Below are positions 6,674 to 52,326 of a DNA stretch of 56,606 bases, piece after piece. How positions within the stretch are numbered: position 1 is the first letter of the stretch; each line of letters starts with the position of its first letter. The stretch is from Candidatus Korobacteraceae bacterium. GTDB taxonomy: Bacteria > Acidobacteriota > Terriglobia > Terriglobales > Acidobacteriaceae. Made by a program: the position numbers and the translations under genes. A model generated the notes under the pieces. The model did no database searches. It was not told where the DNA came from and worked only from the letters and a program-made list of their open reading frames with translations. The stretch is from contig JBEKQY010000004.1 in the NCBI GenBank assembly GCA_049519235.1, positions 1 through 56,606 of the forward strand. The letters are read 5' to 3'.

Positions 6674-8671
6674 ATGGAAATTTCTATACACTCTGGTGAT
6701 CTCCGCCCCGCGCTGGCCACATGTAAGACGCTCTCGAACGCGGTCGGGACCATCAACCCGCGACCTCCAGGTTTGCACAACCACCTGATCCAACTGGTTA
6801 AGCAGGGACTTGCTCGCTTGCTGGCTGGCTATACGCGGTCCCAGCGTGAGTTCAACTTATCGGTTGTTCGGTCCCTTCACATCCTCGCCAGCTCGATTGA
6901 AAAACTTCGAACCAACGTGCAGGCAATGGACGGGAGATTACCTCAGTTGGAGCGGGAAAACACAGAGCTGACGTCCACCTTGCAGAAGTGCCTGGAGATT
7001 CTGGTCAAACTGGAATCGCTGGCCAACTCGCAGAAGAACGCCGGTCCTGAGACCGCGCTCTCCGGCATCGAAAGACAAGCGCCGAGCCCGCAGGCAGCCC
7101 CCTCGGTCGGGCCCTGTGACTGCGCTGAACTGCGCAGTGCAGCGGCCGCCATTGAGAAATGCAGAAACGCTTTGGCGACCAGCAACCCGCGCCCCTCCGC
7201 GTGGCACGACAGCCTGGTCCAATTTATTCAGAAGCCGCTGGCTCGCTTGCTGGCTTGGTATGCGCGGCCCCAGCGTGAGTTCAACCTATCGGCTGTTCGA
7301 TGCCTCGACATCCTCGCCAGCTCCATGCAAAACCTCCAAATTAACTTGCAGGCAATCGACGGAAGACTACCCCAGTTGGAGCGGGACAACGCGGCGCTTA
7401 CGTCTTCCTTGCAGGAGTGCCTGGAGCTCTTCGCCAAACTGGAATCGCTGGCCACCCCGCAGAAGAACATCGATCTTGAGACCGCTCTCGAAACCGCTCT
7501 GGCCAGCATGGAAGGGCCCGCGTCCAACTCGCAGCCATCCCCCTCGGTCAAGCTGTATGACTTCGATGAACCGCACAGCGCAGTGGCCGCCACTGAGAAG
7601 CCCAGCAACGCAACCACCGCTAGCCTGTGGCCTTGGCGTGATTTCAATGCCTCCATAGGTCAATCGCTCAAAGAAGTAGTCCGCGCCGTTGGGAAGCTTT
7701 CCACTGTCATAGTTACCCTTGACTGCCGCTTGGCACAGGCGGAGAAGAGGAGCGCCACCCTGGCGGAGGCAATACAAGAGCAGCTTTCGCTCTTGCACGG
7801 GTTGGTAAAAGCGATAGTTAGCTTACAGAAGACGGCAATCCTGGAAGTCCCTGCTAGCAGGATGGAAACCGACTGGGACAAACAGGCCCGTGAGGTTTCT
7901 CAGTTCTACATCGACACGGGTCTTGGGAACGACAGAACAACTTATCTTATTGGACTGTTCGGCACCGGCCGTTTGTATGTCAATGGACTGATGCTACAGA
8001 ACAGTGGAGAAAGAGCGAAATATTTTAGGGATGGGATCCGCTTGCATCGAGGTCCGACATCTATGATCTATAGCGGCCACGCCACAAGGAGGTATGTCTC
8101 TCGCGGCCAGTTTTTGCCAGCGGTAATGAGCTGTATCTTGGAAGCGGTCAGATTGGGATTTGCCGATTTGATTTTTCTCTGTCGTCATCCCCTCGATTCG
8201 TTGCTGACAAATTGGATTTGGTGGCGGACATACATTCACGCCCACAAGGGGATTGGGGGTATCTCGGAGATTTATAAGAACACGGACAATCTATGCGCCG
8301 ATTTAGAGCAGAATTTCTCTGAATTCAAGGCCTTTGCCGAAGGCGACCCGGATTTTTTCGCGGCCGAACCAGGCACGCGATTTCTGTCTTTCCAGGAATT
8401 TGTTGAGGAAACTGCGCTTCATCTCCAATCCGCCACGCTCACGCTGCGGCTGGAAGACTTCATGGTCGATCCGCTCAAGGAATTTTCTAAGATCGTTGAA
8501 CTCATGTCGGTTGATTTTAATTCGATTCGTTTACCTATAGTCCCTCCCCATACCAAGCCTTATCGCTATTTGGCGATTAAAGACAAAGTCCCTCGATTTA
8601 GAAACTTTATCGATGGGCTGGATGCGGAGACAAAAGGACGGATTCAGAAGATCGGCTATAGTCTAGATTAA
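6674..8671 (+). CDS. coiled-coil repeat protein with C-terminal sulfotransferase-like (PAPS-type donor binding) domain
   Basis: The N-terminal ~390 aa are 2.5 tandem copies of a heptad-rich module ('..NPRP..W..L(V/I)Q..(K)..LARLL(A)WY.RPQREFNLS.VR.L.ILASS...L..N.QA.DGRLPQLER.N..LTS.LQ.CLE....KLESLA..QKN'). The C-terminal ~270 aa carry 'YLIGLFGTGRLYV' (5'-PSB-like P-loop) and 'FLCRHPLDSLLTNW' (R-x-P-x-D-x-x-x-S/T, 3'-PB-like), as in sulfotransferases. Confidence 0.6.
   Translation: MEISIHSGDLRPALATCKTLSNAVGTINPRPPGLHNHLIQLVKQGLARLLAGYTRSQREFNLSVVRSLHILASSIEKLRTNVQAMDGRLPQLERENTELTSTLQKCLEILVKLESLANSQKNAGPETALSGIERQAPSPQAAPSVGPCDCAELRSAAAAIEKCRNALATSNPRPSAWHDSLVQFIQKPLARLLAWYARPQREFNLSAVRCLDILASSMQNLQINLQAIDGRLPQLERDNAALTSSLQECLELFAKLESLATPQKNIDLETALETALASMEGPASNSQPSPSVKLYDFDEPHSAVAATEKPSNATTASLWPWRDFNASIGQSLKEVVRAVGKLSTVIVTLDCRLAQAEKRSATLAEAIQEQLSLLHGLVKAIVSLQKTAILEVPASRMETDWDKQAREVSQFYIDTGLGNDRTTYLIGLFGTGRLYVNGLMLQNSGERAKYFRDGIRLHRGPTSMIYSGHATRRYVSRGQFLPAVMSCILEAVRLGFADLIFLCRHPLDSLLTNWIWWRTYIHAHKGIGGISEIYKNTDNLCADLEQNFSEFKAFAEGDPDFFAAEPGTRFLSFQEFVEETALHLQSATLTLRLEDFMVDPLKEFSKIVELMSVDFNSIRLPIVPPHTKPYRYLAIKDKVPRFRNFIDGLDAETKGRIQKIGYSLD
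6713..7590 (+). repeat. intragenic tandem duplication, two ~429-nt units, with a degenerate partial third unit continuing to ~7845
   Basis: NPRP motifs at aa 28 and aa 171 give a 143-aa (429-nt) period. The DNA of the two units aligns by eye with many identical runs, e.g. 'cccagcgtgagttcaac', 'ccagttggagcggga', 'aaactggaatcgctggcca'. Confidence 0.75.
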
Positions 8672-8758: not shown

Positions 8759-8886
8759 GCGGCGCTTTAGCGCCGCGTCTGGCCGCGGGCAAGAGAACCG
8801 CTTGGGCCGCTGCGGTCATTGGAAATGTCCGCAGCGGCCCAAGCCTTATAAGAGTGAATTGCCTGGACGCCAGCCTGAAGGCTGGC
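8759..8886. repeat. cluster of three GC-rich perfect hairpins (REP-like) between convergent genes; the middle one is a plausible bidirectional terminator
   Basis: Hairpin at 8759-8776: GCGGCGC-TTTA-GCGCCGC. Hairpin at 8800-8844: 16-bp perfect stem (GCTTGGGCCGCTGCGG / CCGCAGCGGCCCAAGC) with a 13-nt loop. Hairpin at 8869-8886: GCCAGCC-TGAA-GGCTGGC. Confidence 0.6.
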
Positions 8887-8941: not shown

Positions 8942-9712
8942 CTATGCACGCCGCGCAGCCCAGGCGCGAGTTACATAGGTCGTCTCAATCGCGGTCAGAC
9001 CTTCTATGCGCTTCTCTACGTAATCCAGAAACTCGCGGAATAGCTCCTGGCCTAATTGCACTTGCAGGTCGTTCACTGAGTGCCACACGCCGATATACTG
9101 CTCGGGGGTCTGGTGCACGGAATGCCTGCCTTCCAGGTACAGCACCTCGGTGAATTGCGGCTTGGCGCTCAACAGGTCGGTCAGCCGCTCGGTGATGCCG
9201 GAGCGTCCCGACGATACCCGCCTGACGTCGGGCTTGAGTCGCGTGATCTGCGCTTCGATCTCGACGAGCAGCGGGTTGGCCTCGATGAAGCGCGGATTCC
9301 ACAAGGCAACGAAGACGCCGCCCGGCCGCAGGATGCGGTGGAACTCGTCGCAGGCCTTGTCGAAATCGGCCCAGTGGAGTGAGGAGGCCATGCTGACCAG
9401 GTCGGCTGAGCTGTCCGGCAATCCAGTGGCTTCCGCCGAACCTTTGCGCCAGACAATCTCCGTACCGCGCGAGCTCTCGATTCCCTGCCCGCGCATGTCG
9501 TCATTGGGTTCCACGGCTACGACGGAATGCAGGCCGCGGGCGGCGAGGGTGCGCGTCCAAATGCCAGTGCCGGCGCCGATGTCGGCGGCATCGATGCTGG
9601 CCGCATCGCGTCCCACATAATGCAGGATCGCGGTCGCGACCTGCGGCGCATACCCAGCTCGAAACTTGGCGTAGTCGCCAGCTAGCCCGGTAAAGTCTCC
9701 GTGTTTCATCAT
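8942..9712 (-). CDS. class I SAM-dependent methyltransferase
   Basis: Motif I 'AADIGAGTGIWTRTLAARG', an acidic residue after beta-2 ('VVAVEPNDDM'), and 'LRPGGVFVALWN'. Confidence 0.85.
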   Translation of the reverse strand: MMKHGDFTGLAGDYAKFRAGYAPQVATAILHYVGRDAASIDAADIGAGTGIWTRTLAARGLHSVVAVEPNDDMRGQGIESSRGTEIVWRKGSAEATGLPDSSADLVSMASSLHWADFDKACDEFHRILRPGGVFVALWNPRFIEANPLLVEIEAQITRLKPDVRRVSSGRSGITERLTDLLSAKPQFTEVLYLEGRHSVHQTPEQYIGVWHSVNDLQVQLGQELFREFLDYVEKRIEGLTAIETTYVTRAWAARRA

Positions 9713-9775
9713 GACTGACAGCTTGCGGACAATGGTTTAAACGCCAAGTGGCTCTGTTGACATCCTGCTTGAAGG

Positions 9776-9926
9776 GGCGCGCCTTTAGGCGCGCCGTAAA
9801 TCCATCGAAACCCGCCGGCTTTAGCCGCCGAGAAGACTCGTTCTCTATGCCGCCTAAATTCGAGTTTCCTCTGTGGCTAAAGCCCGCCGTCGAGATGGTG
9901 TCGATCGGCGCGGCTGAAGCCGCGCC
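9776..9926. repeat. second cluster of REP-like GC hairpins with TTTA/TGAA loops
   Basis: Hairpin at 9776-9795: GGCGCGCC-TTTA-GGCGCGCC. An imperfect CCGCCGGC-TTTA-GCCGCCG lies near 9812-9830. Hairpin at 9907-9926: GGCGCGGC-TGAA-GCCGCGCC, 3 nt beyond the nucleotidyltransferase stop. Confidence 0.6.
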
Positions 9927-9929
9927 CCT

Positions 9930-10688
9930 TCAAACTGGATCTTCGAGCCGAAGCTCGCCCTCGCTCACCATCTTTTCGTACAGCGCCACGTCCTCCGGAT
10001 TGTCGATTTCACCCCATTGGCCATCGGTGGCGAAAGTGCCGATGGGGAGTTGCTTTCCGGCCAGCAGTCGGCGCAGCAATCCGGTCACGTCGAGGCGATC
10101 GCGGATCGCTGGGTCGAGTGCACTGACTACCGCCTCGACGGTACTCCACGCCGGAGGCGTGAATTTCAGCAGGCCCATATATTGCCCCTCGATATCTTCG
10201 ATTCGCGTCGTCCTGCCGCCGATCTCCAGCAATTGGCCCGCGGCATCGATGCGGAAAGTTTCCGCGTCGGCCAAAGGATCGGCGAAACGGCGGCTCCACA
10301 GGCGGCGCCAGGCCCGGTCGTAGCTGATGACCAACTGGCCTGGCGCATCGGCCAGACCGCGCACCAACTCACTGCGATAGAAGATGTCTCCGTAGCTGAC
10401 GATGACCGGCCCCGAGCGCAGCCAGGGAGCGGCTGCGGCGAGCGACATCACCATATTGGTTTCGGCCCATCGTGGGTTGGCGAAATAGCTGAGGCCGGGA
10501 AAATCGATCATCTCGGCGCGATAGCCGCGGACAACCCCGATCTCATCCACGCCGCCTCGCTGTAGCGCCGCAATCTGGCGCTCGATCAAAGGCTTGCCGT
10601 CGAGCTCGACCAGGCATTTCGGGCGGTCGTCGCCGCAATGTCCCATGCGGCTACCGCGACCGGCGGCGAGAATAACTGCGCGCATCAT
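9930..10688 (-). CDS. nucleotidyltransferase (LicC/sugar-phosphate NTP-transferase fold); candidate CTP:phosphoglutamine cytidylyltransferase (Cj1416-like)
   Basis: 'MRAVILAAGRGSRMG' (G-x-G-x-R loop) and 'PKCLVELDGKPLIERQI'. I place the start at ATG 10688, which forms an ATGA overlap with the upstream stop; the ORF track extends to 10745. Confidence 0.8.
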   Translation of the reverse strand: MMRAVILAAGRGSRMGHCGDDRPKCLVELDGKPLIERQIAALQRGGVDEIGVVRGYRAEMIDFPGLSYFANPRWAETNMVMSLAAAAPWLRSGPVIVSYGDIFYRSELVRGLADAPGQLVISYDRAWRRLWSRRFADPLADAETFRIDAAGQLLEIGGRTTRIEDIEGQYMGLLKFTPPAWSTVEAVVSALDPAIRDRLDVTGLLRRLLAGKQLPIGTFATDGQWGEIDNPEDVALYEKMVSEGELRLEDPV

Positions 10689-11287
10689 TCGACTCCGAAG
10701 ACTTGGCGGAACAGCAGCATGTCGGCAGGCGAGAACGGGGCGCACCGCTCAGGGTGCCACATAATCGCCGTTATCGGCTGGGTGGGATGGCGAATCGCTT
10801 TGACAACGCCGTCGGCGGCCACCGCCCAGACTTCGAGCGGCGGCTGCGAGTCAAAGGCGGCAAAGCAATGATAGCTGTTGACCTCTCTTGGCTCGCCGTC
10901 GATGCGGATGAGCTGGCATTTGGTCACATGGCCTTCGACGCGGCGTAACGGAATACCGAAGCGCTGCTGAATCATTTGCATGCCGCGACAAACGCCCAGC
11001 ACCGGCAGCCCGCGCCGCTCCGCCAAATCGAGCAGGGCATTTTCCACTGCGTCGCGTTCCGGGGCATCGCCGCCTAAAACAGCCAGATCGTTACCGCCGG
11101 TCAACACCAACCCGACAATGCCAGCCCGCTCGCACAAGGCAACAGCAGCCTCGACGACGTTGGGGAGCAATACGGGGAGCAGCCCGCAGGCCGCCAGGAA
11201 CTTGGTCCATGCTTGATCCAGGCAATCACGGCGCTCGCCATAGTCCGGATCGACCGATACCCGCTGGGTGATGGCGACCGCCTTCAT
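10685..11287 (-). CDS. class I glutamine amidotransferase / peptidase C26-fold hydrolase; candidate gamma-glutamyl-CDP-amidate hydrolase (Cj1417-like)
   Basis: Nucleophile elbow 'LPVLGVCRGMQMI' and 'IMWHPER' (His/Glu). The start at ATG 11287 (MKAVAITQR) forms an ATGA overlap with the upstream stop. Confidence 0.8.
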   Translation of the reverse strand: MKAVAITQRVSVDPDYGERRDCLDQAWTKFLAACGLLPVLLPNVVEAAVALCERAGIVGLVLTGGNDLAVLGGDAPERDAVENALLDLAERRGLPVLGVCRGMQMIQQRFGIPLRRVEGHVTKCQLIRIDGEPREVNSYHCFAAFDSQPPLEVWAVAADGVVKAIRHPTQPITAIMWHPERCAPFSPADMLLFRQVFGVE

Positions 11288-14208
11288 GCGATGACCATGA
11301 CCCTCTGGTTCGTGCAATCGAGGCACAGCTTGCGCGCTGTCTGCCATCGCTGGAACAGGGCTTCACCGGCGCCGATTACAGCGGGTATGCCGAGCTCGCC
11401 GGCGCGGATCGCCATGTGCGAATTGGCGCCGCCGAACTGGGTAACAAATCCGCTGATATCACGAGTGAAAATCCAGTCGAAGCCGGGGTCCGCGCTGGGC
11501 ACAAAAAGAATCCGTCCGGCGAAGCTCTCCGGAGGGTCACCGACTAAGGCGACCGGTGCGGTGATCTGTTTCTGGGTAATGAAATTCGGCTGGCTGGGGG
11601 GAAGGTGAAATGCGAACACTTCCTCGGGCGACGCGATGATGGGCGGAAGCACGAGATTGCGCGTGAGCGCGTGACGCTCTCTGCCCCGGGCGACACTCTC
11701 CCGCAACGCCTGGCGCACCGAGCCGCTTTCGCTGTACAGCGTGCGGACGATGTCGTAGTCAAGAAATGCACAATCCTCCGCCGATAGACCATGGTCCTCG
11801 CCCAGCTTCTTGATCAGCGACAGGGCGTCGCTCAGGCTTCGCGTAAACACGAACTTCGCGTACTCGCGGCCCTCAATGCCGGCCTTGATGAACTCGATCA
11901 AACTCAAAACGTCGATGTCAAGCTCATGTTCCTTGAGCAGTTGCTCAACGCGGCGCAACTGCTCGATGGAGAGCGCGAAGCGCTGGGGCGCAGACGCTCT
12001 CGGCCGGACACTCGACCAGTCGAAGTAGAGATCGGGCGCTTCGTCGTAGCGCGGCGACAGGATGTCGTACGTCCCTGGCCGGAGGTGGCCGTAGCGCGCC
12101 AGGAAGTCTGCCTTCGGAAGCTGCGCGAAATCCTGCCCGATGCGCGACACCACGGTATCGACACTTGCCATGAATGTGGCAGCCTCTTCGGCATTGAAAA
12201 CACCCACTTCGACGAAGGACTGGAGCAACTGGACCGCGATGAAGCCTGCCCGCGCCAGACCGGCGAACGGCAGCGTGCCGTAGCGCTTGCAGTCCTCGAT
12301 CAGCCAGTAAATGCGGCTGATCTTGTCGATCTCCGCGTTGCAGATGGTGGGAAACCGCTGTGCCAGAAGATCGATCTTGGCGCGGTCGCGCCGCCACAGT
12401 GCGCTCTCGCCATGAATGATGCGATTGGTGAGGCGCCGTAAGGCGCCCGAAAGTTCGGCAAGGTCTTCTGGAGAAAAGCCGTGCTCGGCGAGCCTGCCCA
12501 TCCGCTTCGGCAAATCGAGGGTGTAGCAGGAGAAGATGATCTCAAATTCGACCTTGTCATGGAGATGCGGCTCGGAGAGCAGGCGATCGATGTAGTAATT
12601 CACCAGACGCCCGGCGAGATCGTCGGGCACATCGCGTGGTACGAAGGAGTTGAAGCTGACCCGCACGTCGATGTAGGGCAGTCCGTGAAAGCTGACCAGC
12701 AGCGGAAAACTGCGAAGATTCTGGTAGCCGTAATTGTCCCGCTGATAGGCCCAGATCGCGTCGGTGATGAGTTCGCGATAGAGCGATAGCGAGAGCGGCC
12801 ATGGCCGCAGCCCAATGATTTCGGCTGGGTTCCAGTCCGGCATAACGCCGAATATCGCTCGGCTGCCGTGCAGATAAGGGTGCGGACGGCTGAGCAGCTC
12901 AACCTTGCGCGCGACATCGGCGAGCGCGGTTTCGACCTTCGCGTCCGCTACCTGCCCCTGGCAGTCGACGGCGAGCGGGCGGACTTGCAGAAGGTAAAGC
13001 TGCCCGTCACCGCCGACGGCGAATTCCACGTCGATTGCGTCACACGCTAGAAGGGTTTCCAGCTCGCTGACCAGAGCGATGACCGGCGCCAGCGAAGGTG
13101 GGCAGGCATCCGGCCGCGATTTGAGGCAAACAAAAGTCTCGAGATTCTCGCCGACACCGGCAGTTACGCGATCGGTCCGGCCGGAGCGGTCGTCGTAATT
13201 GATAACGAAATAGGGACCGCCGCTGGGATTGCGCGAGAAGACCACCCCGGCCATCGCCACCCGGTCAAGCATGGGCTGTACGAAGATCTGGTCGGCGTCG
13301 CTTCCGCCATCGGCAAACGAATCAATCACCCGCTCGATGGCCTGGGCCACGGCTGCGCTGCCGGCGACCCCGAGGACAGAATCGTACCTCCCTGCCTGCG
13401 AGCTTGCGGCGCCGTCCTCGCCCCGTGCGCTGCTGCGCACAATGACCCGATCCGAACCCCAGGGCGCAGCGGTGATGGCACCGAGCACGCCAGCGGCATC
13501 CGAGCGCCAATCGCTAACTGAAAACCGGACCTGCGGCAGGACGCGTCCATTGCGCAACAGCGGCGCCAGCGCCTCCAGAGATTCCGCCTTGGTTTTGAAG
13601 GCGATGAGGCGCGCCGGCTGCGCGGCATCCGCGCCATCCCGCCGGGCGCATATCGCCAGGATGCGGTCCACCGCCGTGGCAACGTCCAGCGCCCCATAAT
13701 TGTCGAGGACCAGGTCCGGCGCCTCGGGAGCCTCCGCCGGCACGTCAAGGCCAACCACGTCGCGCGCATGGCCGCGCTGGGCCCCCGCGTAGATGCCCTT
13801 GCTGTCCCGCCGCCGCAGCTCGTCTATCGGGACCCGAAGGTAGATCTCGCGATAACCGGGGATGTTCTCGCGGTTCCAACGCTGCACTTCGTGAAACAGC
13901 GAGATGGTCGCGCAGACGACATCGGCGCCCTGCTCAGCCAGCAACCGGCACAGCCGCGCATTGCGCATCGCCGAGCGCCGCCGGTCCTCTGCACTGTGGC
14001 CAAGGTCCTCGGCAATCACAGAACGGAGCGTGTCGCCATCCAGGAACGTAACCGGACGGCCCGCGGCACGCAGCCGGTTCCACAATTCTCGCCCCAAGGT
14101 TGTCTTGCCGGCGCCAGATAACCCGGTAATCCAGAAAACGTGCCCAGATGAAGCTTCATGTTTGGCCTCGAGCTGGCGTCCCGTCTTCTTTTTTATGTTC
14201 GTCAGCAT
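11284..14208 (-). CDS. fusion protein: N-terminal adenylylsulfate-kinase-like P-loop domain plus PEP-synthase/PPDK-like ATP-grasp with C-terminal swivel phosphohistidine domain (Cj1415-like + Cj1418-like)
   Basis: N-terminal 'VFWITGLSGAGKTTLGREL...LDGDTLR' (APS kinase/CysC type). 'VIVRSSARGEDG' (PPDK_N-type ATP-grasp). Extreme C-terminal 'GGANSHMAIRAGELGIPAVIGAG' (PEP-utilizer mobile His domain). ATG at 14208. Confidence 0.85.
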   Translation of the reverse strand: MLTNIKKKTGRQLEAKHEASSGHVFWITGLSGAGKTTLGRELWNRLRAAGRPVTFLDGDTLRSVIAEDLGHSAEDRRRSAMRNARLCRLLAEQGADVVCATISLFHEVQRWNRENIPGYREIYLRVPIDELRRRDSKGIYAGAQRGHARDVVGLDVPAEAPEAPDLVLDNYGALDVATAVDRILAICARRDGADAAQPARLIAFKTKAESLEALAPLLRNGRVLPQVRFSVSDWRSDAAGVLGAITAAPWGSDRVIVRSSARGEDGAASSQAGRYDSVLGVAGSAAVAQAIERVIDSFADGGSDADQIFVQPMLDRVAMAGVVFSRNPSGGPYFVINYDDRSGRTDRVTAGVGENLETFVCLKSRPDACPPSLAPVIALVSELETLLACDAIDVEFAVGGDGQLYLLQVRPLAVDCQGQVADAKVETALADVARKVELLSRPHPYLHGSRAIFGVMPDWNPAEIIGLRPWPLSLSLYRELITDAIWAYQRDNYGYQNLRSFPLLVSFHGLPYIDVRVSFNSFVPRDVPDDLAGRLVNYYIDRLLSEPHLHDKVEFEIIFSCYTLDLPKRMGRLAEHGFSPEDLAELSGALRRLTNRIIHGESALWRRDRAKIDLLAQRFPTICNAEIDKISRIYWLIEDCKRYGTLPFAGLARAGFIAVQLLQSFVEVGVFNAEEAATFMASVDTVVSRIGQDFAQLPKADFLARYGHLRPGTYDILSPRYDEAPDLYFDWSSVRPRASAPQRFALSIEQLRRVEQLLKEHELDIDVLSLIEFIKAGIEGREYAKFVFTRSLSDALSLIKKLGEDHGLSAEDCAFLDYDIVRTLYSESGSVRQALRESVARGRERHALTRNLVLPPIIASPEEVFAFHLPPSQPNFITQKQITAPVALVGDPPESFAGRILFVPSADPGFDWIFTRDISGFVTQFGGANSHMAIRAGELGIPAVIGAGEALFQRWQTARKLCLDCTNQRVMVIA

Positions 14209-14523
14209 TTGAACTTGTAACGTCCCTGTGACAACGACCTTACCCCGTTAGTAACATTCCCGTAACAAATTGGCAATATATATGAACCCACTGTGGCAGT
14301 AAATGGTATGCGCATCCGGCGACGTGTGGCGCCGTTCGTACTCGCCCTCACCGGAGCGGATGACGACAACTCCCAAAAATTCTGCTGCCCCATGCCGCCT
14401 TGGCTGACAGCTCTTTGCGGCTCTTCGCGCGAGATGGTTGCGGGTACAGAGCGAGATCCTTCATTCAAAAAGAGCCGACAGAAGTCTTTCGTATGGAGTT
14501 GGAGCCATGTGGAGTGGGACAGT

Positions 14524-14576
14524 GGTAGCGCTATCGGGAATCGAACCCGGGCTTGAAGGTTGAGAATCTGAAAACC
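14524..14576 (-). repeat. tRNA 3'-half-like sequence (anticodon-arm remnant, T-arm, acceptor 3' strand, CCA at 14523-14525); copy 1 of a 53-nt direct repeat; not a complete tRNA
   Basis: The reverse complement reads ..CCGGGTTCGATTCCCGATAGCGCTACCA. 47/53 positions are identical to 52274-52326 by my count. The T-stem has a C.A mismatch, and no matching 5' acceptor strand (AGCGCTA) or D-arm lies upstream. Confidence 0.55.
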
Positions 14577-33619: not shown

Positions 33620-36600
33620 ATGGCCGATGCAATCGCGATCATCGGGCTAGGATGCGAATACCCAGACGCTTCTACGCCCGTAGAGTTGTGGCACAGCGTT
33701 CTGGCACAACGGCGGAGTTTTCGCCGCATTCCCCGGGAAAGACTTGATCTGGAAGCGTACTGGTCGCCGGACCGAACGGACTGTGATCGCACATACTGCA
33801 CCAAGGCGGCGCTGCTCAAGAACTTTTCCTTTGACCGCGCAGCTTTTGGCATATCGGGCGCTACCTTTCGCGCCACTGATCTTGCGCATTGGCTGGCGCT
33901 GTCCACTGCCGCCAAGGCACTGAACGAGGCATTTGCCGACAGCGAGATCGTGCATTGGCGGGAAACGACCGGCGTATTCGTCGGAAATTCGCTGACCGGG
34001 GAGTTTTCCCGCGCCAGTTGTCTTCGCGTCCGCTGGCCTTTTGTCGAGAGTGTTCTGGAAGGACAACTGCGAGCACAAGGCTGGTCCGACAGCGACGCTG
34101 CGGACTTTTTGCGGCGATGCGAAGAACAGTACAAGGCGCACTTTGAGCCGTTTTCCGAGGACACTCTTCCCGGTGGACTTTCCAACACCATCGCTGGCCG
34201 GATCTGCAATTTCTTCGATCTGAAGGGCGGCGGATATGTGCTGGACGGCGCCTGCGCGTCGTCGCTGCTGGCCGTCATCAACGGTTGTTCCGCTCTGGAG
34301 TCGCGCGACCTGAATGTTGCCATCTGTGGCGGAGTTGATCTCAGCCTGGATCCGTTCGAGCTGGTCGGCTTTGCCCGCAACGGCGCGCTCGCCGCCGATG
34401 AAATGAGGGTCTTCGACAGCAACCCGACCGGGTTCCTGCCTGGAGAAGGCTGCGGATTTGTGGTGATGATGCGCCTCCAGGATGCGCTGGCCGCAGGCTG
34501 CAATGTTCGCGGAGTCATTCGCGGCTGGGGCATTTCGTCTGACGGGCAAGGGGGCATGACCCGGCCCGAGCCGCAAGGACAGTTGCTGGCGCTGACGCGC
34601 GCCTATCGGCGGGCGGGCCTCGATTCATCCCAGGTTCCGTATTTCGAGGCCCATGGTACGGGGACGGCGGCCGGGGATGACGCCGAACTCACCGCGCTCG
34701 CCGAAGCCGTGCGATCTCCATCGGGGAGCCCCGCCGTCGTCAGCTCCATCAAGGCCATCATCGGACACACCAAGGCGGCAGCGGGAATCGCCGGGTTGAT
34801 GAAAGCCATGATGGCTTTGGAATTCGGGACACTGCCTCCTACGACTGGTTGCATTACTCCACACCGAATTCTGACCGAGAAGCCGGAACTGCTGCGGGCG
34901 CAATCGGAGTCTTCGTCGTGGCCGCAGGACCGCGAATTGCTTGCCGGAGTTAGCGCCATGGGCTTTGGCGGAATCAACACCCATGTGGTGTTGCAGAGCG
35001 CCGGCGCCGTTCCACGGCAAATTCCGGCCTCCATGCGAGCTGCATGCCATTCGTCTCAAGACGCGGAGCTGTTCCTGTTTTCTGCGGACACCTCGGCGGC
35101 ACTGCAAGCGGCAGTCGATTCCGTAGTCACGAAGGCGGCATCGCTATCGGCCGCGGAATTGACGGACTTGAGCGCTTACCTGATTCGCCGCACAGGGCGC
35201 GGCCAGTGGAAAGCCGCGTTGGTCGCCCGCACTGCCGAAGAATTGAGCCGGGAAGCAGCAGGGCTAGCGAGCTGGATCGGCGCCGGAATAACGAATCGAT
35301 ATCAATACAACGACGGCATCTTCTTGTCGAGCGAAAACAGGCGCCTGCGGCTCTGCTATCTGTTTCCTGGGCAGGGAGTATCCTATTGCGCGGACGATTG
35401 GCCGCTCTACAGCAGACTGGTGGGCGATGGAGCGCTGACCGAATTCGCGCCTCTGTCCGCGGACGCTGGAGAAACTGAGAAAGCTCAGGTCGGGATCTCG
35501 CTGCAGTGCCTGAAGCAGTTGCGGGTGCTCTCCTCGTTGGCAATTCAGGCCGACGCTGCCATTGGCCATAGCGTAGGCGAACTCGTGGCGTTGTGTTGGT
35601 CCGGCACCATTGCTGAATCGCAATTGCTGGAGATGGTGCAGGCTCGAGGCCGCGTCATGCATCACTGCTCGCCTTCGGGCGGAGCGATGATCGCGGTGAT
35701 GGCGAGCGCTGCCAGCGTCAACGGATTTCTTCCCGCCGAGACCGTCATCGCGGCGCTCAACGGAAGCCACATCGTCGTATCCGGGCCTGTAGAGCTGATT
35801 GCCAAGGCAGAGGCTATCTGCCTAGAGAAAAACATCCATACCGTACGGCTCCCCGTGAAGTATGCATTTCATTCGCCGGCCTTCGCGCCGGCCGCAAAGT
35901 TGTTTGCGGCTGAACTTGAACATCATGCCTTTCAAAAGCCCACGAGAACAGTTTTTTCGACCGTGACCGGAAACGTATTTCGGGAAGATGCCGACCTCGT
36001 CCGTCACCTATCAGAACAGATCATCAACCCCGTCCGGTTCGAATCTGCGGTTCAGCAGGCTTCGGCAGTGGTCGACCTGTTCCTGGAAGTGGGCTCGCCG
36101 GGCGTGCTGCGTGATATGGTGCAAGCTGTCTCAGAGGTCCCGGTAATTAGCTGGACTCCTCGCAGCGACACAGGCTTGCTCACCACGGCTGCTGTCCTGC
36201 ACGTGTCTGGATCTCCAGTCGATCTTCGGCGCCTGGTGACAACGCGCTTTGTCCGCGACTTCTCTCCTGACGCGCGATTCGATTTTCTCCGGAATCCCTG
36301 CGAATCCCTGGAGGATTCCCAGCGCGAGCGGAAGGCCTGCCGCGTACCTCAAGCTGTTCGTCCTGAAGAACCGGTTGTTGCTGCATCCATAATCCCGGCG
36401 GGGATGCAGACTGGCAATGTTCGGCAAGCGGCCTTAGACAAATTGCTGGAGATTGTCTCAAGGAAGACAGAGTTACCGAAGGACCGGCTACAGCCCTCGA
36501 TGAACCTGTTGACCGATTTGCATTTGAGCTCCATTACGGTGGCGCAGATCGCGATCGAAACCGCAAGGGCATTGGGTAGGAAGCCGCTTCTGGCGCCTAC

Positions 36601-39364
36601 GAGTGCTGCCGGAAAGACTCTCGAACAGCTCGCGGCCACCATTGCGGAATCTGCCCAGGCAGGCGAAGCGGAGGGACCGCTTCCGGCGATACGCGGCATA
36701 GATAGCTGGGTGGGAATGGCAGTGGTGGAGGACCAGCCGCTGCCGCTTACTGCTCCCGCCATCGCAGCGCAGGTCCGCGGGCACTGGGATGTGCTTGGCG
36801 CGTTATCGCCCAACGCAAAGCGCATTGCGCAAGGTGTCGTAGGAGAGCTTTCAGGAGACGGCGTTCTGCTGCTCTACGATTCCACAACATCACTCGCGCT
36901 GCTGCTGAGTGCCGTTCAGCAGGCTCATCTCAAGCACTGTGCCTTGCTGGTCGTCTGCGATTCTTTAGCGCCGTCATTGTCGGGATTCGCTCGCAGTGTA
37001 TTCCTTGAAGGTGGCGCAAGCCGAGCACTTGTGGTGCGGCTGGATTTCGCCGATCCGGGTGCGCCGCAATGCATCCTTCAGGAATTCGGCAATCCCGCTC
37101 GCTTCGTAGAGAGCAGCTATATGTCCGGGCAGCGATACGAGCCCGTTGTACGGTTGCTGGAACCGGGCACAACCGAGGCGTCACCTTTCTTCACAGCGGA
37201 AGATTGCCTTCTAGTTCTGGGAGGCGGCAAGGGCATTGCAGCGGAATGTGCGTTTGAACTTGCCCGCAACTACGGCTTATCACTCGCTCTGGTGGGACGC
37301 TCTGACCCTTCCGCCGATAGTGAGCTAAGGAACAATCTCGACCGGCTGTCTCATGCCGGAATTCGCTTCCGCTATGAGCGCGGGGACGTCACCTCCGAGG
37401 AATTTTGCACTACCATCCCCGCTCTGGAAGCCGAGATGGGCCCCATCACCGCGATCCTGCACGCTGCCGGACTGAACCAGCCGAAGTCGCTGGCAGCCTT
37501 GACGGCGGCCGACCTGGAAGCGGCGCTTGCGCCGAAGCTTGCCCCGCTGGCGTCACTGCAAGGCGTGCTGGGCTTCGATCGTCTCAAGGCAGTCATCGCG
37601 TTCGGTTCGATCATTGCCCGTATGGGCCTCGCCGGTGAGGCCCATTATGCTCTTGCCAACGAACGGCTGCGTGAACAAATGGAAGAGCTTTCCACGCGCT
37701 ACACCAATTGCCGGTTTGGCTGCCTGGAATGGTCGGTGTGGTCTGGGCTGGGCATGGGGGAGCGGCTGGCCAGAGTCGATGAACTGGCACGGCAAGGAGT
37801 TGAGCCGTTAACGCCAGAGATGGGCACCAGAGCGCTTATCGATTTCCTGCAATCAGAATCTCCGGGCACGTCGGTCATTGTCACCTCGCGGTTCCCGTCC
37901 ATGCCGACTCTGAATGTCAGCAGGCCGGCCATCAAACCGTATCGCTTTCTGGAACGCACGCTTGTGGACTATCCGCATATCGAACTGGTGGCGGAGGCCG
38001 ACTTGGCGATACAAAAGGATTTGTACCTTAACGACCACAAGCTGGACGGAACGGTGCTTTTCCCCGCCGCTCTGGGTTTAGAAGCAATGGCCCAGGCGGC
38101 TACCGCGCTATTTAGAAAGAGCGGTGCCTTAACTTTATCCGACATTCGATTTGAGTCGCCCATTACGGTTGATGCTGCCAACGGAACGACGATCAGAATA
38201 GTGGCCCTCAGGCGGGATTTCGCCTCGGCTGACATCGTCATTCGCTCTAGCCAAACCGCCTTCCAGGTTGACCACTTCCGGGCGACCTGCTCGCTACAGG
38301 AAGGACCCAGGCCGCGCCCGCACAATCATCCGGTTCCTGCAACGCCGCTAATCGAGGGCGACGATCTATATGGCTTCATGCTTTTTCAACGTGGGCGCTT
38401 TCAAGCGGTGAAGGGATACCTCCATCTGGATTCGCGGTCCTGCACTGCGTTGCTCTCGCCCTCTGAACAGCAGTGGTTCAGTCAATTTCTGCCGCAGTCC
38501 TTTGTGCTTTTGAATCCAGCGTTTGCGGATGCGGCCATGCACGCCATACAAGCATGCATACCCCACCGAAAGCTCGCTCCCACAGCGATAAAGCAAATTA
38601 TCGCGCACTCTTCTTCCTGCAAATTGGAGACCGCGGTCTGTAAAGCGGTCGAGCGCGCTTCCAACCAGGACGAGTTTGTCTACGACCTCGACATCCAGGA
38701 TCAAGACGGAAATCCGCTGCAGTCATGGAAGGGACTCACCCTTCGCGCGGTGGCGGAAAACGATGCGACTTTGCTGAGTACCCCGGCCTTCATCGTGAAC
38801 ATGCTGGAGCGGCGGTGGCGCGAGATTACCGGGGACGACGGGGCAACTGTCTCGCTGCGGGAACAGGGCTCGGATCGCGTGCAGGTCTTAGAACCGCGCC
38901 CGCGGCGTGCCGATGGCAAACCGGCGCAATCCGGGCGGACCGCGGCACGCGCTTGGTCCGGCCGTACCCTGTTGGAACTCCGGTCTTCGCTTGACAGCAG
39001 TTGCGATCTGGAACGAGTCGTCACGCGCGACGAAGCCACCTGGCGCGACCTGCTCGGCGGGCCAGGATTTGAATCGGCGCTTTTCTTTTCTCAAGAGCAC
39101 GGTGAAGACCTGGACTTGTCGGCTACGCGCGCATGGTGTCTCGCCGAGTGCCTGAAGAAGATCGGAAAACCGGCATCCGCTCCGGTCACGTTGGCTGCCT
39201 GTCTGCCCGGCCGCTGGATGGTCATGCGGTGCGGCGGCTGCACGCTTTGCACGGTTCCAATTGTGGCTTCGGGAAATCGAATGGTCGCGGCATTTGCTGC
39301 CCGCTCACGGGCTACCCGCCACAACCTTCCGGCCGAGGTGGCACGTGCCTTCGTTTCTCTATGA
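33620..39364 (+). CDS. iterative type I polyketide synthase of the enediyne (PKSE) architecture: KS-AT-ACP-KR-DH-PPTase, 1914 aa
   Basis: KS: 'LDGACASSLLAV' (Cys ~aa 212), 'EAHGTGTAAGD', 'GHTKAAAG'. AT: 'AIGHSVGELVAL'. ACP-like: 'LTDLHLSSITVAQIAIE' (~nt 36510-36560). KR Rossmann: 'LVLGGGKGIAAECAFELA'. DH hotdog: 'HKLDGTVLFPAALGLE'. C-terminal PPTase-like: 'RAWCLAECLKKIGK'. The length is typical of PKSE. Confidence 0.85.
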   Translation: MADAIAIIGLGCEYPDASTPVELWHSVLAQRRSFRRIPRERLDLEAYWSPDRTDCDRTYCTKAALLKNFSFDRAAFGISGATFRATDLAHWLALSTAAKALNEAFADSEIVHWRETTGVFVGNSLTGEFSRASCLRVRWPFVESVLEGQLRAQGWSDSDAADFLRRCEEQYKAHFEPFSEDTLPGGLSNTIAGRICNFFDLKGGGYVLDGACASSLLAVINGCSALESRDLNVAICGGVDLSLDPFELVGFARNGALAADEMRVFDSNPTGFLPGEGCGFVVMMRLQDALAAGCNVRGVIRGWGISSDGQGGMTRPEPQGQLLALTRAYRRAGLDSSQVPYFEAHGTGTAAGDDAELTALAEAVRSPSGSPAVVSSIKAIIGHTKAAAGIAGLMKAMMALEFGTLPPTTGCITPHRILTEKPELLRAQSESSSWPQDRELLAGVSAMGFGGINTHVVLQSAGAVPRQIPASMRAACHSSQDAELFLFSADTSAALQAAVDSVVTKAASLSAAELTDLSAYLIRRTGRGQWKAALVARTAEELSREAAGLASWIGAGITNRYQYNDGIFLSSENRRLRLCYLFPGQGVSYCADDWPLYSRLVGDGALTEFAPLSADAGETEKAQVGISLQCLKQLRVLSSLAIQADAAIGHSVGELVALCWSGTIAESQLLEMVQARGRVMHHCSPSGGAMIAVMASAASVNGFLPAETVIAALNGSHIVVSGPVELIAKAEAICLEKNIHTVRLPVKYAFHSPAFAPAAKLFAAELEHHAFQKPTRTVFSTVTGNVFREDADLVRHLSEQIINPVRFESAVQQASAVVDLFLEVGSPGVLRDMVQAVSEVPVISWTPRSDTGLLTTAAVLHVSGSPVDLRRLVTTRFVRDFSPDARFDFLRNPCESLEDSQRERKACRVPQAVRPEEPVVAASIIPAGMQTGNVRQAALDKLLEIVSRKTELPKDRLQPSMNLLTDLHLSSITVAQIAIETARALGRKPLLAPTSAAGKTLEQLAATIAESAQAGEAEGPLPAIRGIDSWVGMAVVEDQPLPLTAPAIAAQVRGHWDVLGALSPNAKRIAQGVVGELSGDGVLLLYDSTTSLALLLSAVQQAHLKHCALLVVCDSLAPSLSGFARSVFLEGGASRALVVRLDFADPGAPQCILQEFGNPARFVESSYMSGQRYEPVVRLLEPGTTEASPFFTAEDCLLVLGGGKGIAAECAFELARNYGLSLALVGRSDPSADSELRNNLDRLSHAGIRFRYERGDVTSEEFCTTIPALEAEMGPITAILHAAGLNQPKSLAALTAADLEAALAPKLAPLASLQGVLGFDRLKAVIAFGSIIARMGLAGEAHYALANERLREQMEELSTRYTNCRFGCLEWSVWSGLGMGERLARVDELARQGVEPLTPEMGTRALIDFLQSESPGTSVIVTSRFPSMPTLNVSRPAIKPYRFLERTLVDYPHIELVAEADLAIQKDLYLNDHKLDGTVLFPAALGLEAMAQAATALFRKSGALTLSDIRFESPITVDAANGTTIRIVALRRDFASADIVIRSSQTAFQVDHFRATCSLQEGPRPRPHNHPVPATPLIEGDDLYGFMLFQRGRFQAVKGYLHLDSRSCTALLSPSEQQWFSQFLPQSFVLLNPAFADAAMHAIQACIPHRKLAPTAIKQIIAHSSSCKLETAVCKAVERASNQDEFVYDLDIQDQDGNPLQSWKGLTLRAVAENDATLLSTPAFIVNMLERRWREITGDDGATVSLREQGSDRVQVLEPRPRRADGKPAQSGRTAARAWSGRTLLELRSSLDSSCDLERVVTRDEATWRDLLGGPGFESALFFSQEHGEDLDLSATRAWCLAECLKKIGKPASAPVTLAACLPGRWMVMRCGGCTLCTVPIVASGNRMVAAFAARSRATRHNLPAEVARAFVSL

Positions 39365-51918: not shown

Positions 51919-52273
51919 GAGGAGACCTCGTCGTGCATCGGGAAATCGAGTGTGAGTTGTCGGAAGCCACCTCGCCGAGCTCGAGGGCTCCAACCAGAAG
52001 TTACAGGCTATGTCCGGCCACACCGCCTGTCAGTGAGCGTTATCACCGAGGGGCGTGTCGCGAGCAGACGGCGCAGGGTTCGTGGGCGCATAAATGGTCC
52101 TTGAAATGTCATCATGATGTCATCATGGTGTTGACATCGCGCGCGGTGTCGTCGACTCCATTAACTCTTCTGAAATGAACTGCTTAAGATTTTCTGCCAA
52201 CCGAAATGGCGGCATAAATTGTGGTCGTCGGAAGAGAAGCGGTAAGCAATTGATTGCAGAGGCATTAAGGTTC

Positions 52274-52326
52274 GGTAGCGCTATCGGGAATCGAACCCGA
52301 GTTTGAAGATTGAGAATCTTATTACC
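52274..52326 (-). repeat. tRNA 3'-half-like sequence, copy 2 of the 53-nt direct repeat; candidate att core next to the integrase
   Basis: The reverse complement reads AAGA-TTCTCAA-TCTT (anticodon-arm-like, CTC), AAAC, TCGGG-TTCGATT-CCCGA (perfect T-arm), TAGCGCT-A-CC. No matching 5' acceptor strand or D-arm lies upstream, so this is not a complete tRNA. Confidence 0.55.

Follow-up and report, generated by a model that had tools for sequence, protein, structure and literature searches.

A probable Campylobacter-type operon for an activated phosphoramidate donor in a soil Acidobacteriota genome

The four genes of the operon described here lie on the minus strand of a 56,606-nucleotide stretch of contig JBEKQY010000004.1 (the window), and the host of the locus is a soil Acidobacteriota MAG. 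ORF and Pfam analysis places, in the direction of transcription, a 974-aa fusion of a kinase and a glutamine-kinase-type protein (11284-14208), a 200-aa class I amidotransferase/C26 hydrolase (10685-11287), a 252-aa LicC-like nucleotidyltransferase (9930-10688) and a 256-aa class I SAM methyltransferase (8942-9712). All four ORF boundaries are identical in the source contig's own gene calls. The hydrolase gene overlaps the upstream fusion gene, and the nucleotidyltransferase gene the upstream hydrolase gene, through ATGA start/stop overlaps (gtcgaATGAtgcgc and atcgcATGAaggcg), so that ORFs, gene calls and junction sequences bear out the layout given in the first-pass annotation. That annotation had also announced the four folds of MeOPN-donor synthesis; Pfam finds them as APS_kinase, PPDK_N/PEP-utilizers, Peptidase_C26/GATase and NTP_transf_3, with the refinement that they occupy three ORFs, kinase and PEP-utiliser being parts of one protein. 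All four enzymes have intact catalytic motifs. In C. jejuni the roles in the MeOPN pathway have been published: Cj1418 is the L-glutamine kinase, Cj1416 the CTP:phosphoglutamine cytidylyltransferase, Cj1417 the gamma-glutamyl-CDP-amidate hydrolase and Cj1415 the CDP-amidate 3'-kinase, with Cj1419/Cj1420 as methyltransferases and Cj1421/Cj1422 as transferases (PMC6429109; bioRxiv 10.1101/2024.11.05.622173; PMC9561416).

The N-terminal domain of the fusion (13624-14208, minus strand) is an APS-kinase-like P-loop domain by Pfam and NCBIfam. Pfam APS_kinase covers residues 22-169 (E 2.6e-34), and the translation contains the P-loop GLSGAGKTT and an LDGD motif. Against the curated NCBIfam models the domain scores 177-182 bits with subfamily NF004041, above the cut-off of 127, and falls below every apsK/CysC cut-off (including apsK, PRK00889 and PRK03846); by these scores it is a member of NF004041, and its predicted role is that of a cytidine diphosphoramidate 3'-kinase (Cj1415). 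The rest of the protein (11284-13623, minus strand) combines an ATP-grasp with a C-terminal swivel His and matches PPDK_N and PEP-utilizers (residues 898-967) in Pfam. It scores 946 bits with NF004508 over residues 202-973 (cut-off 501), which by model score makes it a member of that family, and it would act as an L-glutamine kinase (Cj1418). The top PEP-synthase model reaches 57.5 bits and the rifamycin-phosphotransferase models at most 39, against cut-offs of 598-1700. The swivel His, proposed earlier as a check, lies in GGANSHMAIRA (H737 of the domain, H932 of the protein) and is invariant across 34 diverse homologues. The expectation that each gene would receive a generic annotation held in part: RefSeq names plasmid homologues 'PEP-utilizing enzyme', and close relatives of the methyltransferase are annotated merely 'UbiE' or 'class I SAM-dependent methyltransferase', but proteins at 86-91% identity already carry the automatic JGI name 'glutamine kinase'.

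The 200-aa protein matches Peptidase_C26 and GATase, and its best NCBIfam model, aligned end-to-end, is NF045546, gamma-glutamyl-CDP-amidate hydrolase (E 7.7e-34; 117.5 bits, below the equivalog cut-off of 250). We scored the conservation of the GATase triad, the nucleotidyltransferase motifs and the SAM motif over 52-120 cluster-linked homologues. The triad C100/H178/E180 is kept in at least 99% of 120 of them, and the protein is predicted to fill the hydrolase role of Cj1417. The 252-aa protein matches NTP_transf_3 and is of the LicC/MobA-like type, with G10, G12, R14, K24 and D101 conserved among 107 homologues. Its top PDB match, LicC 1jyk, is weak (E 2e-10), and in about 40 representative clusters a relative forms the N-terminal part of a fusion with a glutamine-kinase homologue. 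Because there is no model specific to this family, the substrate is assigned from context, which suggests a CTP:phosphoglutamine cytidylyltransferase (Cj1416).

The fourth protein matches Methyltransf_11 and Methyltransf_25 and conserves motif I (D44, G46, G48), in agreement with the class I SAM methyltransferase proposed earlier; its likely role, that of Cj1419/Cj1420, is to O-methylate the phosphoramidate. In Alphaproteobacteria, Bacillota and Bacteroidota the module contains homologues of 58-66% identity, so the methyltransferase is conserved as much as or more than the kinase. The spacer that separates it from the nucleotidyltransferase gene (9713-9929) is 217 bp long, compared with about 25-125 bp in most related loci. 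A repeat search finds a 24-nt GC-rich palindromic element in two inverted copies (9772-9795 and 9907-9930), the only two in the window; since shuffled sequence is expected to contain none, the label 'REP-like' is fair. Downstream, an inverted repeat at 8800-8844 (21-nt arms, 95% complementary, 3-nt loop) forms a hairpin between the methyltransferase gene and a convergent gene on the plus strand (6674-8671), and is likely a bidirectional terminator. Also near the operon are genes for a PHO4 phosphate transporter and a phosphatidylserine decarboxylase, together with an LGT-like gene.

The module and its gene order are strictly conserved across phyla. We found the module in at least 580 species genomes of many phyla and in 1,644 clusters at 50% identity, and its core also in 120 AT-rich metagenome contigs. 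The order glutamine kinase, hydrolase, nucleotidyltransferase, correctly recognised from the start as that of Cj1418-1417-1416, is kept in 143 of 148 loci from many phyla. All five functions occur together in 80 genome loci, spread over Acidobacteriota, Pseudomonadota, Bacillota, Bacteroidota, Planctomycetota, Verrucomicrobiota, Chlamydiota, Bdellovibrionota and Cyanobacteria-related lineages. Rosetta-stone fusions tie both the kinase (four representative clusters) and the nucleotidyltransferase to the glutamine-kinase homologue. Many related loci lie in sugar-nucleotide/polysaccharide islands with DegT, epimerase/dehydratase, NeuB, glycosyltransferase and exporter genes. The chemistry had been thought essentially restricted to Campylobacter. 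For biochemistry this stands, the literature searched having yielded no biochemical data on members from elsewhere; as a statement of rarity it does not. Hundreds of unrelated bacteria carry the module, so the locus is a genuine instance, though not the only one, of chemistry usually described as 'Campylobacter-specific'. It adds a member to a known pathway; the interpretation is supported, and the rarity was overstated.

The convergent gene encodes a 665-aa protein whose N-terminus is a repeated coiled coil and whose C-terminal domain of some 270 aa (7856-8668) is conserved; the protein has no match among Pfam and NCBIfam families. Of 43 close loci, 33-34 keep this C-terminal domain beside the module, and none retains any other window neighbour near it; one homologue of 73% identity, in another genome, has no such module nearby. 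A phmmer sulfotransferase signal is weak (E 0.065, at CRHPLDSLLTNW). The nine best Foldseek matches in the PDB are all PAPS sulfotransferases at non-significant values (E 0.04-0.4, TM 0.24-0.29), and hhalign and hmmsearch comparisons with the cluster-linked Sulfotransfer_3 family were not significant. The protein is a candidate for transferring the phosphoramidate or for another part in the pathway. Sulfotransferase-family genes (Sulfotransfer_3, Sulfotransfer_1) and CysQ-like (Inositol_P) 3'-nucleotidases are repeatedly found next to the module in related loci, and the window contains neither a Sulfotransfer_3 nor a CysQ gene. These recurring partners lend support to a 3'-phosphorylated donor and suggest that the phosphoramidate is moved by a PAPS-style transfer.

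Taken on homology and context, the locus is probably an operon for an activated phosphoramidate donor made by the C. jejuni route. The nucleotidyltransferase would couple CTP with L-glutamine phosphate to give CDP-L-glutamine, from which the hydrolase of C26/GATase fold would, by means of its Cys-His-Glu triad, release glutamate and leave cytidine diphosphoramidate. The APS-kinase-like domain would then phosphorylate the 3'-OH to yield 3'-phospho-cytidine-5'-diphosphoramidate, a PAPS-like donor; the co-transcribed SAM methyltransferase would contribute the O-methyl group, and a separate transferase, for which the conserved neighbour at 6674-8671 is the best local candidate, would pass the (methyl)phosphoramidate to an acceptor. 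We infer the substrates (Gln and CTP), and likewise when methylation takes place, which protein is the transferase and what the acceptor is. Three sequence-based findings that would speak against this pathway were looked for and none was obtained: the ATP-grasp/His enzyme groups with neither PEP synthases nor rifampin phosphotransferases, the kinase stays below every apsK/CysC cut-off, and the nucleotidyltransferase matches LicC only weakly.

The same families could instead make a related nucleotide-activated product (with another nucleotide, unmethylated or from a different amide donor) or serve a lipid, protein or small-molecule target rather than a capsule-like polysaccharide. Gene calls of this window show no glycosyltransferase, polysaccharide or polysaccharide-export genes within 10 kb of the operon, and the transporter, decarboxylase and LGT-like neighbours, the hydrolase score under the equivalog cut-off, a cluster-linked sulfotransferase-like domain fused to an AMP-binding (acyl-activating) enzyme in Paenibacillus and the alternation of two methyltransferase subtypes between loci all fit such variants. 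Taken together we nevertheless judge them unlikely: the five core proteins keep 45-65% identity across phyla, the methyltransferase most of all, which argues for a common small-molecule intermediate and not for divergent chemistry, and many related loci sit in the polysaccharide islands mentioned above. A second alternative, that the kinase is a genuine APS kinase, with the 665-aa protein as a genuine PAPS-dependent sulfotransferase, so that the locus is partly for sulfation and the glutamine-kinase link incidental, draws on the strong APS_kinase match, the domain's closest PDB matches (APS kinases), the recurrent sulfotransferase-family genes and a Vibrio plasmid on which cysD/cysN adjoin a glutamine-kinase fusion. 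It is very improbable given that NF004041, and none of the apsK/CysC models, accepts the kinase; that 28 of 28 cluster-linked kinases from other phyla match NF004041, only about half of them reaching E 1e-30 with generic apsK models; that the translational fusion to the glutamine-kinase homologue is retained in 40 of 43 close loci; that the contig's gene calls include no sulfate-activation genes (cysD/cysN/cysH, ATP sulfurylase) within 10 kb; and that the N-terminus of the Vibrio fusion is not an APS_kinase domain. Lastly, a chance juxtaposition of generic enzymes, the large one being a PEP synthase, PPDK or rifampin-type phosphotransferase of the usual kind, as the Pfam domains PPDK_N and PEP-utilizers and the RefSeq name might allow, is effectively refuted by the model scores, the fusions to nucleotidyltransferase and kinase and the conserved gene order.

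With the PEP synthase/pyruvate phosphate dikinase/rifampin phosphotransferase superfamily the large enzyme shares the ATP-grasp and the swivelling phospho-histidine domain. The alignment takes in no more than the short His-domain and a portion of the ATP-grasp (at most 57.5 bits against at least 598), and the 974-aa protein has no match to the PEP/pyruvate-binding TIM-barrel domain. PAPS sulfation (CysC, PAPS sulfotransferases and the CysQ 3'(2'),5'-bisphosphate nucleotidase) resembles the proposed operon in its APS-kinase-fold domain, which would make a 3'-phosphorylated nucleotide donor, and in the sulfotransferase-family and CysQ-like genes of related loci. It differs in that the present locus lacks an ATP sulfurylase and a Sulfotransfer_3/CysQ gene in the window, its kinase is of the NF004041 type, and its donor would bear phosphoramidate instead of sulfate. 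Borg extrachromosomal elements of Methanoperedens have also been reported to carry MeOPN-like gene clusters, in which a glutamine kinase, hydrolase and cytidylyltransferase outside Campylobacter were identified by structure/sequence similarity only; unlike the present locus, these lie on archaeal elements, include a PEP-mutase fusion and have no described kinase fusion or methyltransferase (bioRxiv 10.1101/2024.11.05.622173).

Compared with C. jejuni itself, the kinase is fused here to the N-terminus of the glutamine kinase and is there a separate gene at the operon end; one methyltransferase stands in place of two; capsule (kps) and heptose context is missing; the candidate transferase is the unannotated 665-aa neighbour, where C. 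jejuni has Cj1421/Cj1422; and the carrier is a soil bacterium, not a pathogen. The likeness, drawn from folds, family models and gene order, consists of the same four folds with a SAM methyltransferase, the same order of the three core genes, a hydrolase whose best model NCBI named for the Cj1417 function, and near-identical proteins to which JGI gave the name of the Cj1418 function. A soil bacterium appears to carry a full Campylobacter-type enzyme set for a rare nitrogen-phosphorus sugar decoration, and the conserved partners of the module, the 665-aa protein among them, offer new leads.

The phosphoramidate operon (8942-14208, minus strand) consists of four genes, for all of which the source contig's own gene calls give identical boundaries. 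Gene 1 (11284-14208) encodes a 974-aa protein in which Pfam recognizes an APS_kinase domain (residues 22-169), a PPDK_N ATP-grasp domain and a PEP-utilizers swivel domain (residues 898-967). It is followed, on the same minus strand and again with Pfam assignments, by gene 2 (10685-11287), encoding a 200-aa Peptidase_C26/GATase protein (GAT), gene 3 (9930-10688), encoding a 252-aa NTP_transf_3 nucleotidyltransferase (NT), and gene 4 (8942-9712), encoding a 256-aa Methyltransf_11 class I SAM methyltransferase (MT). ATGA overlaps are found at the gene 1/2 and gene 2/3 junctions, and the 217-bp gap upstream of the MT gene holds a 24-nt GC-rich palindromic element in two inverted copies. The open reading frames, junctions and Pfam domains confirm the first-pass annotation of three minus-strand frames joined by ATGA and then a methyltransferase after a spacer, which the two inverted palindromic copies show to be "REP-like" as described; the four protein folds that it listed are likewise all present, with the refinement that the kinase and the PEP-utilizer form one fused protein. 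A strong hairpin (8800-8844) lies between the MT gene and a convergent, unannotated gene for a 665-aa protein (6674-8671, plus strand).

The glutamine-kinase part (GK) of the fusion, residues 202-973, matches the NCBIfam equivalog model NF004508 with 946 bits against a cut-off of 501, while the best PEP-synthase model on the large protein reaches 57.5 bits and the PPDK, prodigiosin-ligase and rifamycin-phosphotransferase models score lower, so that the protein stands apart from the PEP synthases and rifampin phosphotransferases. Its Pfam architecture is PPDK_N plus C-terminal PEP-utilizers, with no PEP/pyruvate-binding domain. The swivel histidine (H737 of the domain, within GGANSHMAIRA), whose conservation had been proposed as a check, is invariant in all 34 homologues compared (37-55% identity). 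Acidobacteriota MAGs (Ca. Sulfotelmatobacter, Terriglobales, Korobacteraceae, Bryobacteraceae) abound in fusion relatives with 86-95% identity. JGI gives many of those that are 86-91% identical the name "glutamine kinase", and at NCBI the relatives are called "adenylyl-sulfate kinase". We take NF004508 to be the family containing Cj1418, the L-glutamine kinase of Campylobacter jejuni (EC 2.7.3.13), and the JGI naming gives indirect support.

The N-terminal kinase domain passes the cut-off of the NCBIfam subfamily model NF004041 (177 bits, cut-off 127) and falls short of those of the apsK/CysC models (121 bits against 138.7 for TIGR00455, 123 against 244 for NF002059 and 104 against 163 for NF003013). 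NF004041 is also matched by all 28 cluster-linked kinases from distant taxa, and no cysD, cysN or cysH gene lies within 10 kb of the operon. These results separate the domain from bona fide CysC, as had been anticipated; judged by its sequence, it is an APS-kinase fold with a P-loop outside the bona fide apsK/CysC equivalogs. NF004041 is presumably the subfamily that contains Cj1415, a placement with indirect support.

The catalytic triad C100/H178/E180 of the GAT is present in the window protein and conserved in at least 99% of 120 cluster-linked homologues. Its best NCBIfam model is NF045546 (gamma-glutamyl-CDP-amidate hydrolase), aligned end to end with an E value of 7.7e-34, and the next model is 22 orders of magnitude worse; the score of 117.5 bits lies under the equivalog cut-off of 250, and the protein would best be described as Cj1417-like by best match and context rather than as a certified equivalog. 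The NT carries the GxGxR...K signature (G10/G12/R14/K24/D101), conserved in at least 90-99% of 107 cluster-linked homologues. Among NCBIfam models it matched generic NTase models only, with E values of about 1e-16 or weaker and all under their cut-offs, and no family-specific model. Its best solved relative in the PDB is LicC (E 2e-10), and the PDB holds no closer relatives of any of the operon proteins. The functional link of the NT to the donor pathway rests on the ATGA coupling, its conserved position and the existence of NTase-GK fusions. The SAM motif D44/G46/G48 of the MT, present in the window protein, is conserved in at least 90-99% of 52 cluster-linked homologues. The MT gene is found in 38 of 43 close and 31 of 37 distant genome loci, and its identity across phyla (58-66%) is equal to or above that of the other module components. 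A second MT subtype, 30-35% identical to that of the window, replaces or joins the window-type MT in some related loci, lying between GK and GAT in four (L027, L037, L047, L053) and after the NT on the opposite strand in three (L009, L020, L036).

A search with the GK part against 1.84 billion representatives, clustered at 50% identity, returned 1,644 clusters at E <= 1e-30, of which the best 150 are all full-length. Three GK architectures occur: stand-alone (~770-800 aa), fused to an APS kinase (~970 aa) and fused to an NTase (~1000-1050 aa, in ~40 representatives). Because fusions of each with GK exist, the kinase and the NTase are independently tied to the GK homologue. A genome scan with one genome per species gave at least 580 confirmed GK relatives from more than 10 phyla. 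The best 80 loci, which we examined, include Acidobacteriota; Pseudomonas taiwanensis, Chitinibacter, Chitinilyticum, Azospirillum and Dongia; Paenibacillus, Cohnella, Clostridium guangxiense and Anaerotruncus colihominis; and MAGs of Planctomycetota, Chlamydiales, Sericytochromatia, Bdellovibrionota, Bacteroidota and Verrucomicrobiales. Cultured carriers include Azospirillum lipoferum 4B, Pseudomonas taiwanensis, Chitinibacter tainanensis, Anaerotruncus colihominis and species of Paenibacillus and Cohnella. Among these best 80 loci the kinase, GAT, NT and MT almost always adjoin the GK gene, and the order GK, GAT, NT is seen in 143 of the 148 loci with all three genes, so that the 1418-1417-1416 order reported for the window is preserved well beyond it. 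The same core was found on 120 further AT-rich metagenome contigs, mostly marine, by means of an AT-codon-biased DNA pattern for MPDWNPAE. Campylobacter appeared neither among the best 80 of the at least 580 loci nor among the AT-rich GK representatives matched by exact sequence. The RefSeq names of the plasmid homologues ("PEP-utilizing enzyme", "gamma-glutamyl-gamma-aminobutyrate hydrolase family", "phosphocholine cytidylyltransferase family", "adenylyl-sulfate kinase") are as generic as had been predicted.

The donor module is thus mobile and tightly conserved, and we count the complete pathway in at least 580 species genomes. The GK enzyme also occurs outside the full module in some genomes, since L028, L070 (Clostridium guangxiense) and L073 hold a GK homologue with no GAT, NT or MT within 10 kb; that of L028 is a kinase fusion. 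Eight loci with 80-92%-identical fusion genes (L004, L006, L013, L021, L023, L025, L029, L030) bear the titles Isosphaeraceae, Binataceae, Gemmatimonadales, Solirubrobacteraceae, Vulcanimicrobiaceae, Alphaproteobacteria or Gammaproteobacteria, a sign either that these MAGs were mis-binned or mislabelled or that the module was recently transferred horizontally. The Isosphaeraceae, Gemmatimonadales and Binataceae labels (85-92% identity) looked unreliable and were left out of use.

The donor-pathway interpretation of the first-pass annotation is upheld by the folds, the NF004508 and NF004041 matches, the NF045546 best match (below its cut-off), the conserved motifs, the gene order and the fusions. 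With the published Campylobacter route as the template for the proposed steps (PMC6429109; bioRxiv 10.1101/2024.11.05.622173), the GK part would convert ATP and L-glutamine to L-glutamine phosphate via a phospho-histidine intermediate, CTP would be added to give CDP-L-glutamine, hydrolysis would release CDP-amidate and the fused kinase domain would 3'-phosphorylate the CDP-amidate to yield the donor; SAM-dependent O-methylation and transfer to an acceptor would follow. For the present locus we infer the first four steps from family membership, motifs, fusions and context.

The C-terminal domain (~270 aa) of the 665-aa protein is the window's only conserved neighbour of the operon, and no Pfam or NCBIfam family matched it. 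It lies beside the module, sometimes on the module's other side, in 33-34 of the 43 close loci. None of these 43 has retained the phosphate transporter, the regulator or any further neighbour from the window; we therefore reject adjacency by mere local synteny and conclude that the module and the 665-aa gene move as a unit. The protein is absent from the more distant module loci, and a 73%-identical homologue exists elsewhere, away from the module. The domain family has the invariant strings GLFGTGR, CRHPLDSLLTNW and LRLEDFMVDP (LRLEDF..DP), which we read as similar to the sulfotransferase motifs 5'-PSB, 3'-PB and RxED. A phmmer comparison with a sulfotransferase gave a weak match (E 0.065) at the second of these motifs. 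The nine best Foldseek PDB matches of an AlphaFold model (pLDDT 67.7) are PAPS sulfotransferases, none of them significant (E >= 0.04, TM <= 0.29), and the cluster-linked Sulfotransfer_3 family was aligned to the domain by hhalign with a probability of only 1.8% and 1.2% and by hmmsearch with no match. On genomic context alone, we propose the 665-aa protein as a candidate transferase.

The N-terminal part of this protein (6674-7855, plus strand) contains two clear ~130-aa repeats and a third, degenerate one, which are coiled-coil-like and have the consensus NPRPxxxHxxLxQxxxxxLARLLAxYxRxQREFNLSxVRxLxILASS…RLPQLERxN; no tandem DNA repeat was found beneath them. The homologues, 260-440 aa in overall length, have much shorter and variable N-termini. 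Of two recurring "families" examined beside the module in close loci, one of 306 aa was rejected as probably no more than the opposite strand of the 665-aa homologue's coiled-coil region, because its sole match in the window is antisense within that region.

Additional neighbour families were counted across 159 non-close loci, and the following were the commonest. Sulfotransfer_3 proteins occur in 21 and Inositol_P/CysQ-like phosphatases in 13; by reading of the sequence, epimerase/dehydratase-like proteins occur in 25, a DegT-like aminotransferase in 19, an ABC-exporter-like protein in 15 and a NeuB-like protein in 10. Some close Acidobacteriota loci have a Sulfotransfer_3 gene directly upstream of the module and a CysQ-like gene nearby, and neither gene was found in the window. 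The recurrence of sulfotransferase-fold and CysQ-like genes would fit a last step like that of PAPS. We consider it possible, if somewhat short of probable, that sulfotransferase-fold enzymes transfer the phosphoramidate from 3'-phospho-CDP-(methyl)amidate as they would from PAPS, with CysQ-like phosphatases recycling cytidine 3',5'-bisphosphate and with the 665-aa protein and the Sulfotransfer_3 and Sulfotransfer_1 genes of other phyla serving as the transferases. If this is true, abundant soil Acidobacteriota and marine bacteria would widely use "phosphoramidation" to modify surfaces or metabolites, and it would be no Campylobacter curiosity. We know of no in vitro reconstitution of the transfer step, not even for Campylobacter; PAPS-like transfer may already be partly implicit in that system, and the literature searched held no paper linking the transferases Cj1421/Cj1422 to sulfotransferases.

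Several individual loci have unusual arrangements. Two Paenibacillus loci (L077:7185-9980 and L079:2799-5567) encode a 931-aa protein that combines an N-terminal AMP-binding (acyl/aryl-activating) enzyme and a TPR segment with the cluster-linked Sulfotransfer_3 domain; from this, the acceptor in Bacillota may be acylated or something other than a glycan. On the Vibrio alfacsensis plasmid pYa108 (L084, 5472-11334), cysD/cysN and an SLC13 permease stand head-to-head with a 966-aa GK fusion, whose ~190-aa N-terminal extension is not an APS_kinase domain; the module there is part of an EPS locus, in which glycosyltransferases and also a CDP-glycerol glycerophosphotransferase-like gene are found. 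On plasmid AZO_p6 of Azospirillum lipoferum 4B (L083, 5656-8196), an 846-aa protein ends in the cluster-linked kinase domain, while no Pfam family matched its first ~650 residues; two Sulfotransfer_1 genes, a C1q-domain protein and a histidine phosphatase are found downstream.

Elsewhere in the window, a sequence that resembles a tRNA 3' portion (T-arm, acceptor, CCA) is present in two direct copies, 14523-14551 and 52273-52301, both on the minus strand, with 2 mismatches over 29 nt and ~48 nt alike by eye; no such copies are expected by chance. ARAGORN and Rfam detected a complete tRNA at neither copy and no other RNA gene upstream of the operon, where the first copy, at a distance of 315 bp, is just the tRNA 3' fragment; just beyond the second are a tyrosine integrase (52407-53555, minus strand) and an N6/N4 DNA methylase (54212-55714, plus strand). 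The copies look like att remnants of integrative elements. The operon lies outside the stretch between them, which includes a 1914-aa type I polyketide synthase-like protein (KS-AT-KR-DH; 33620-39364, plus strand) that looks unrelated to the operon.

The glycobiology literature regards N-P bonded O-methyl phosphoramidate (MeOPN) as a hallmark of the Campylobacter capsule. Glutamine kinase is "C. jejuni-specific" according to a review of 2022 (PMC9561416), and in the literature searched phosphoramidate capsule chemistry is described as Campylobacter-restricted (PMC6429109, PMC9561416), the sole non-Campylobacter report found being the Borg preprint (bioRxiv 10.1101/2024.11.05.622173). The statement that this chemistry had been characterised essentially only in Campylobacter therefore holds for the literature searched, the Borg preprint excepted; it is the rarity that is overstated, given the breadth of the module. 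The function names already exist in public pipelines (NCBIfam, JGI) and the GK family is large; the locus owes its moderate interest mostly to the family's breadth and to the transferase lead. With the complete donor pathway spread beyond Campylobacter, cultured strains included, the phosphoramidate carrier and the transferase type become testable. The labels "adenylyl-sulfate kinase", "PEP-utilizing enzyme", "gamma-glutamyl-GABA hydrolase family", "phosphocholine cytidylyltransferase family" and "UbiE" are misleading in these clusters.

The likeness to the Campylobacter MeOPN system is one of fold, family models and gene order. Campylobacter has two methyltransferases (Cj1419 and Cj1420), of which the second MT subtype in some related loci is reminiscent. 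The window locus is a further carrier of a known pathway, in which the kinase fusion is an architectural twist and which is accompanied by an uncharacterised partner.
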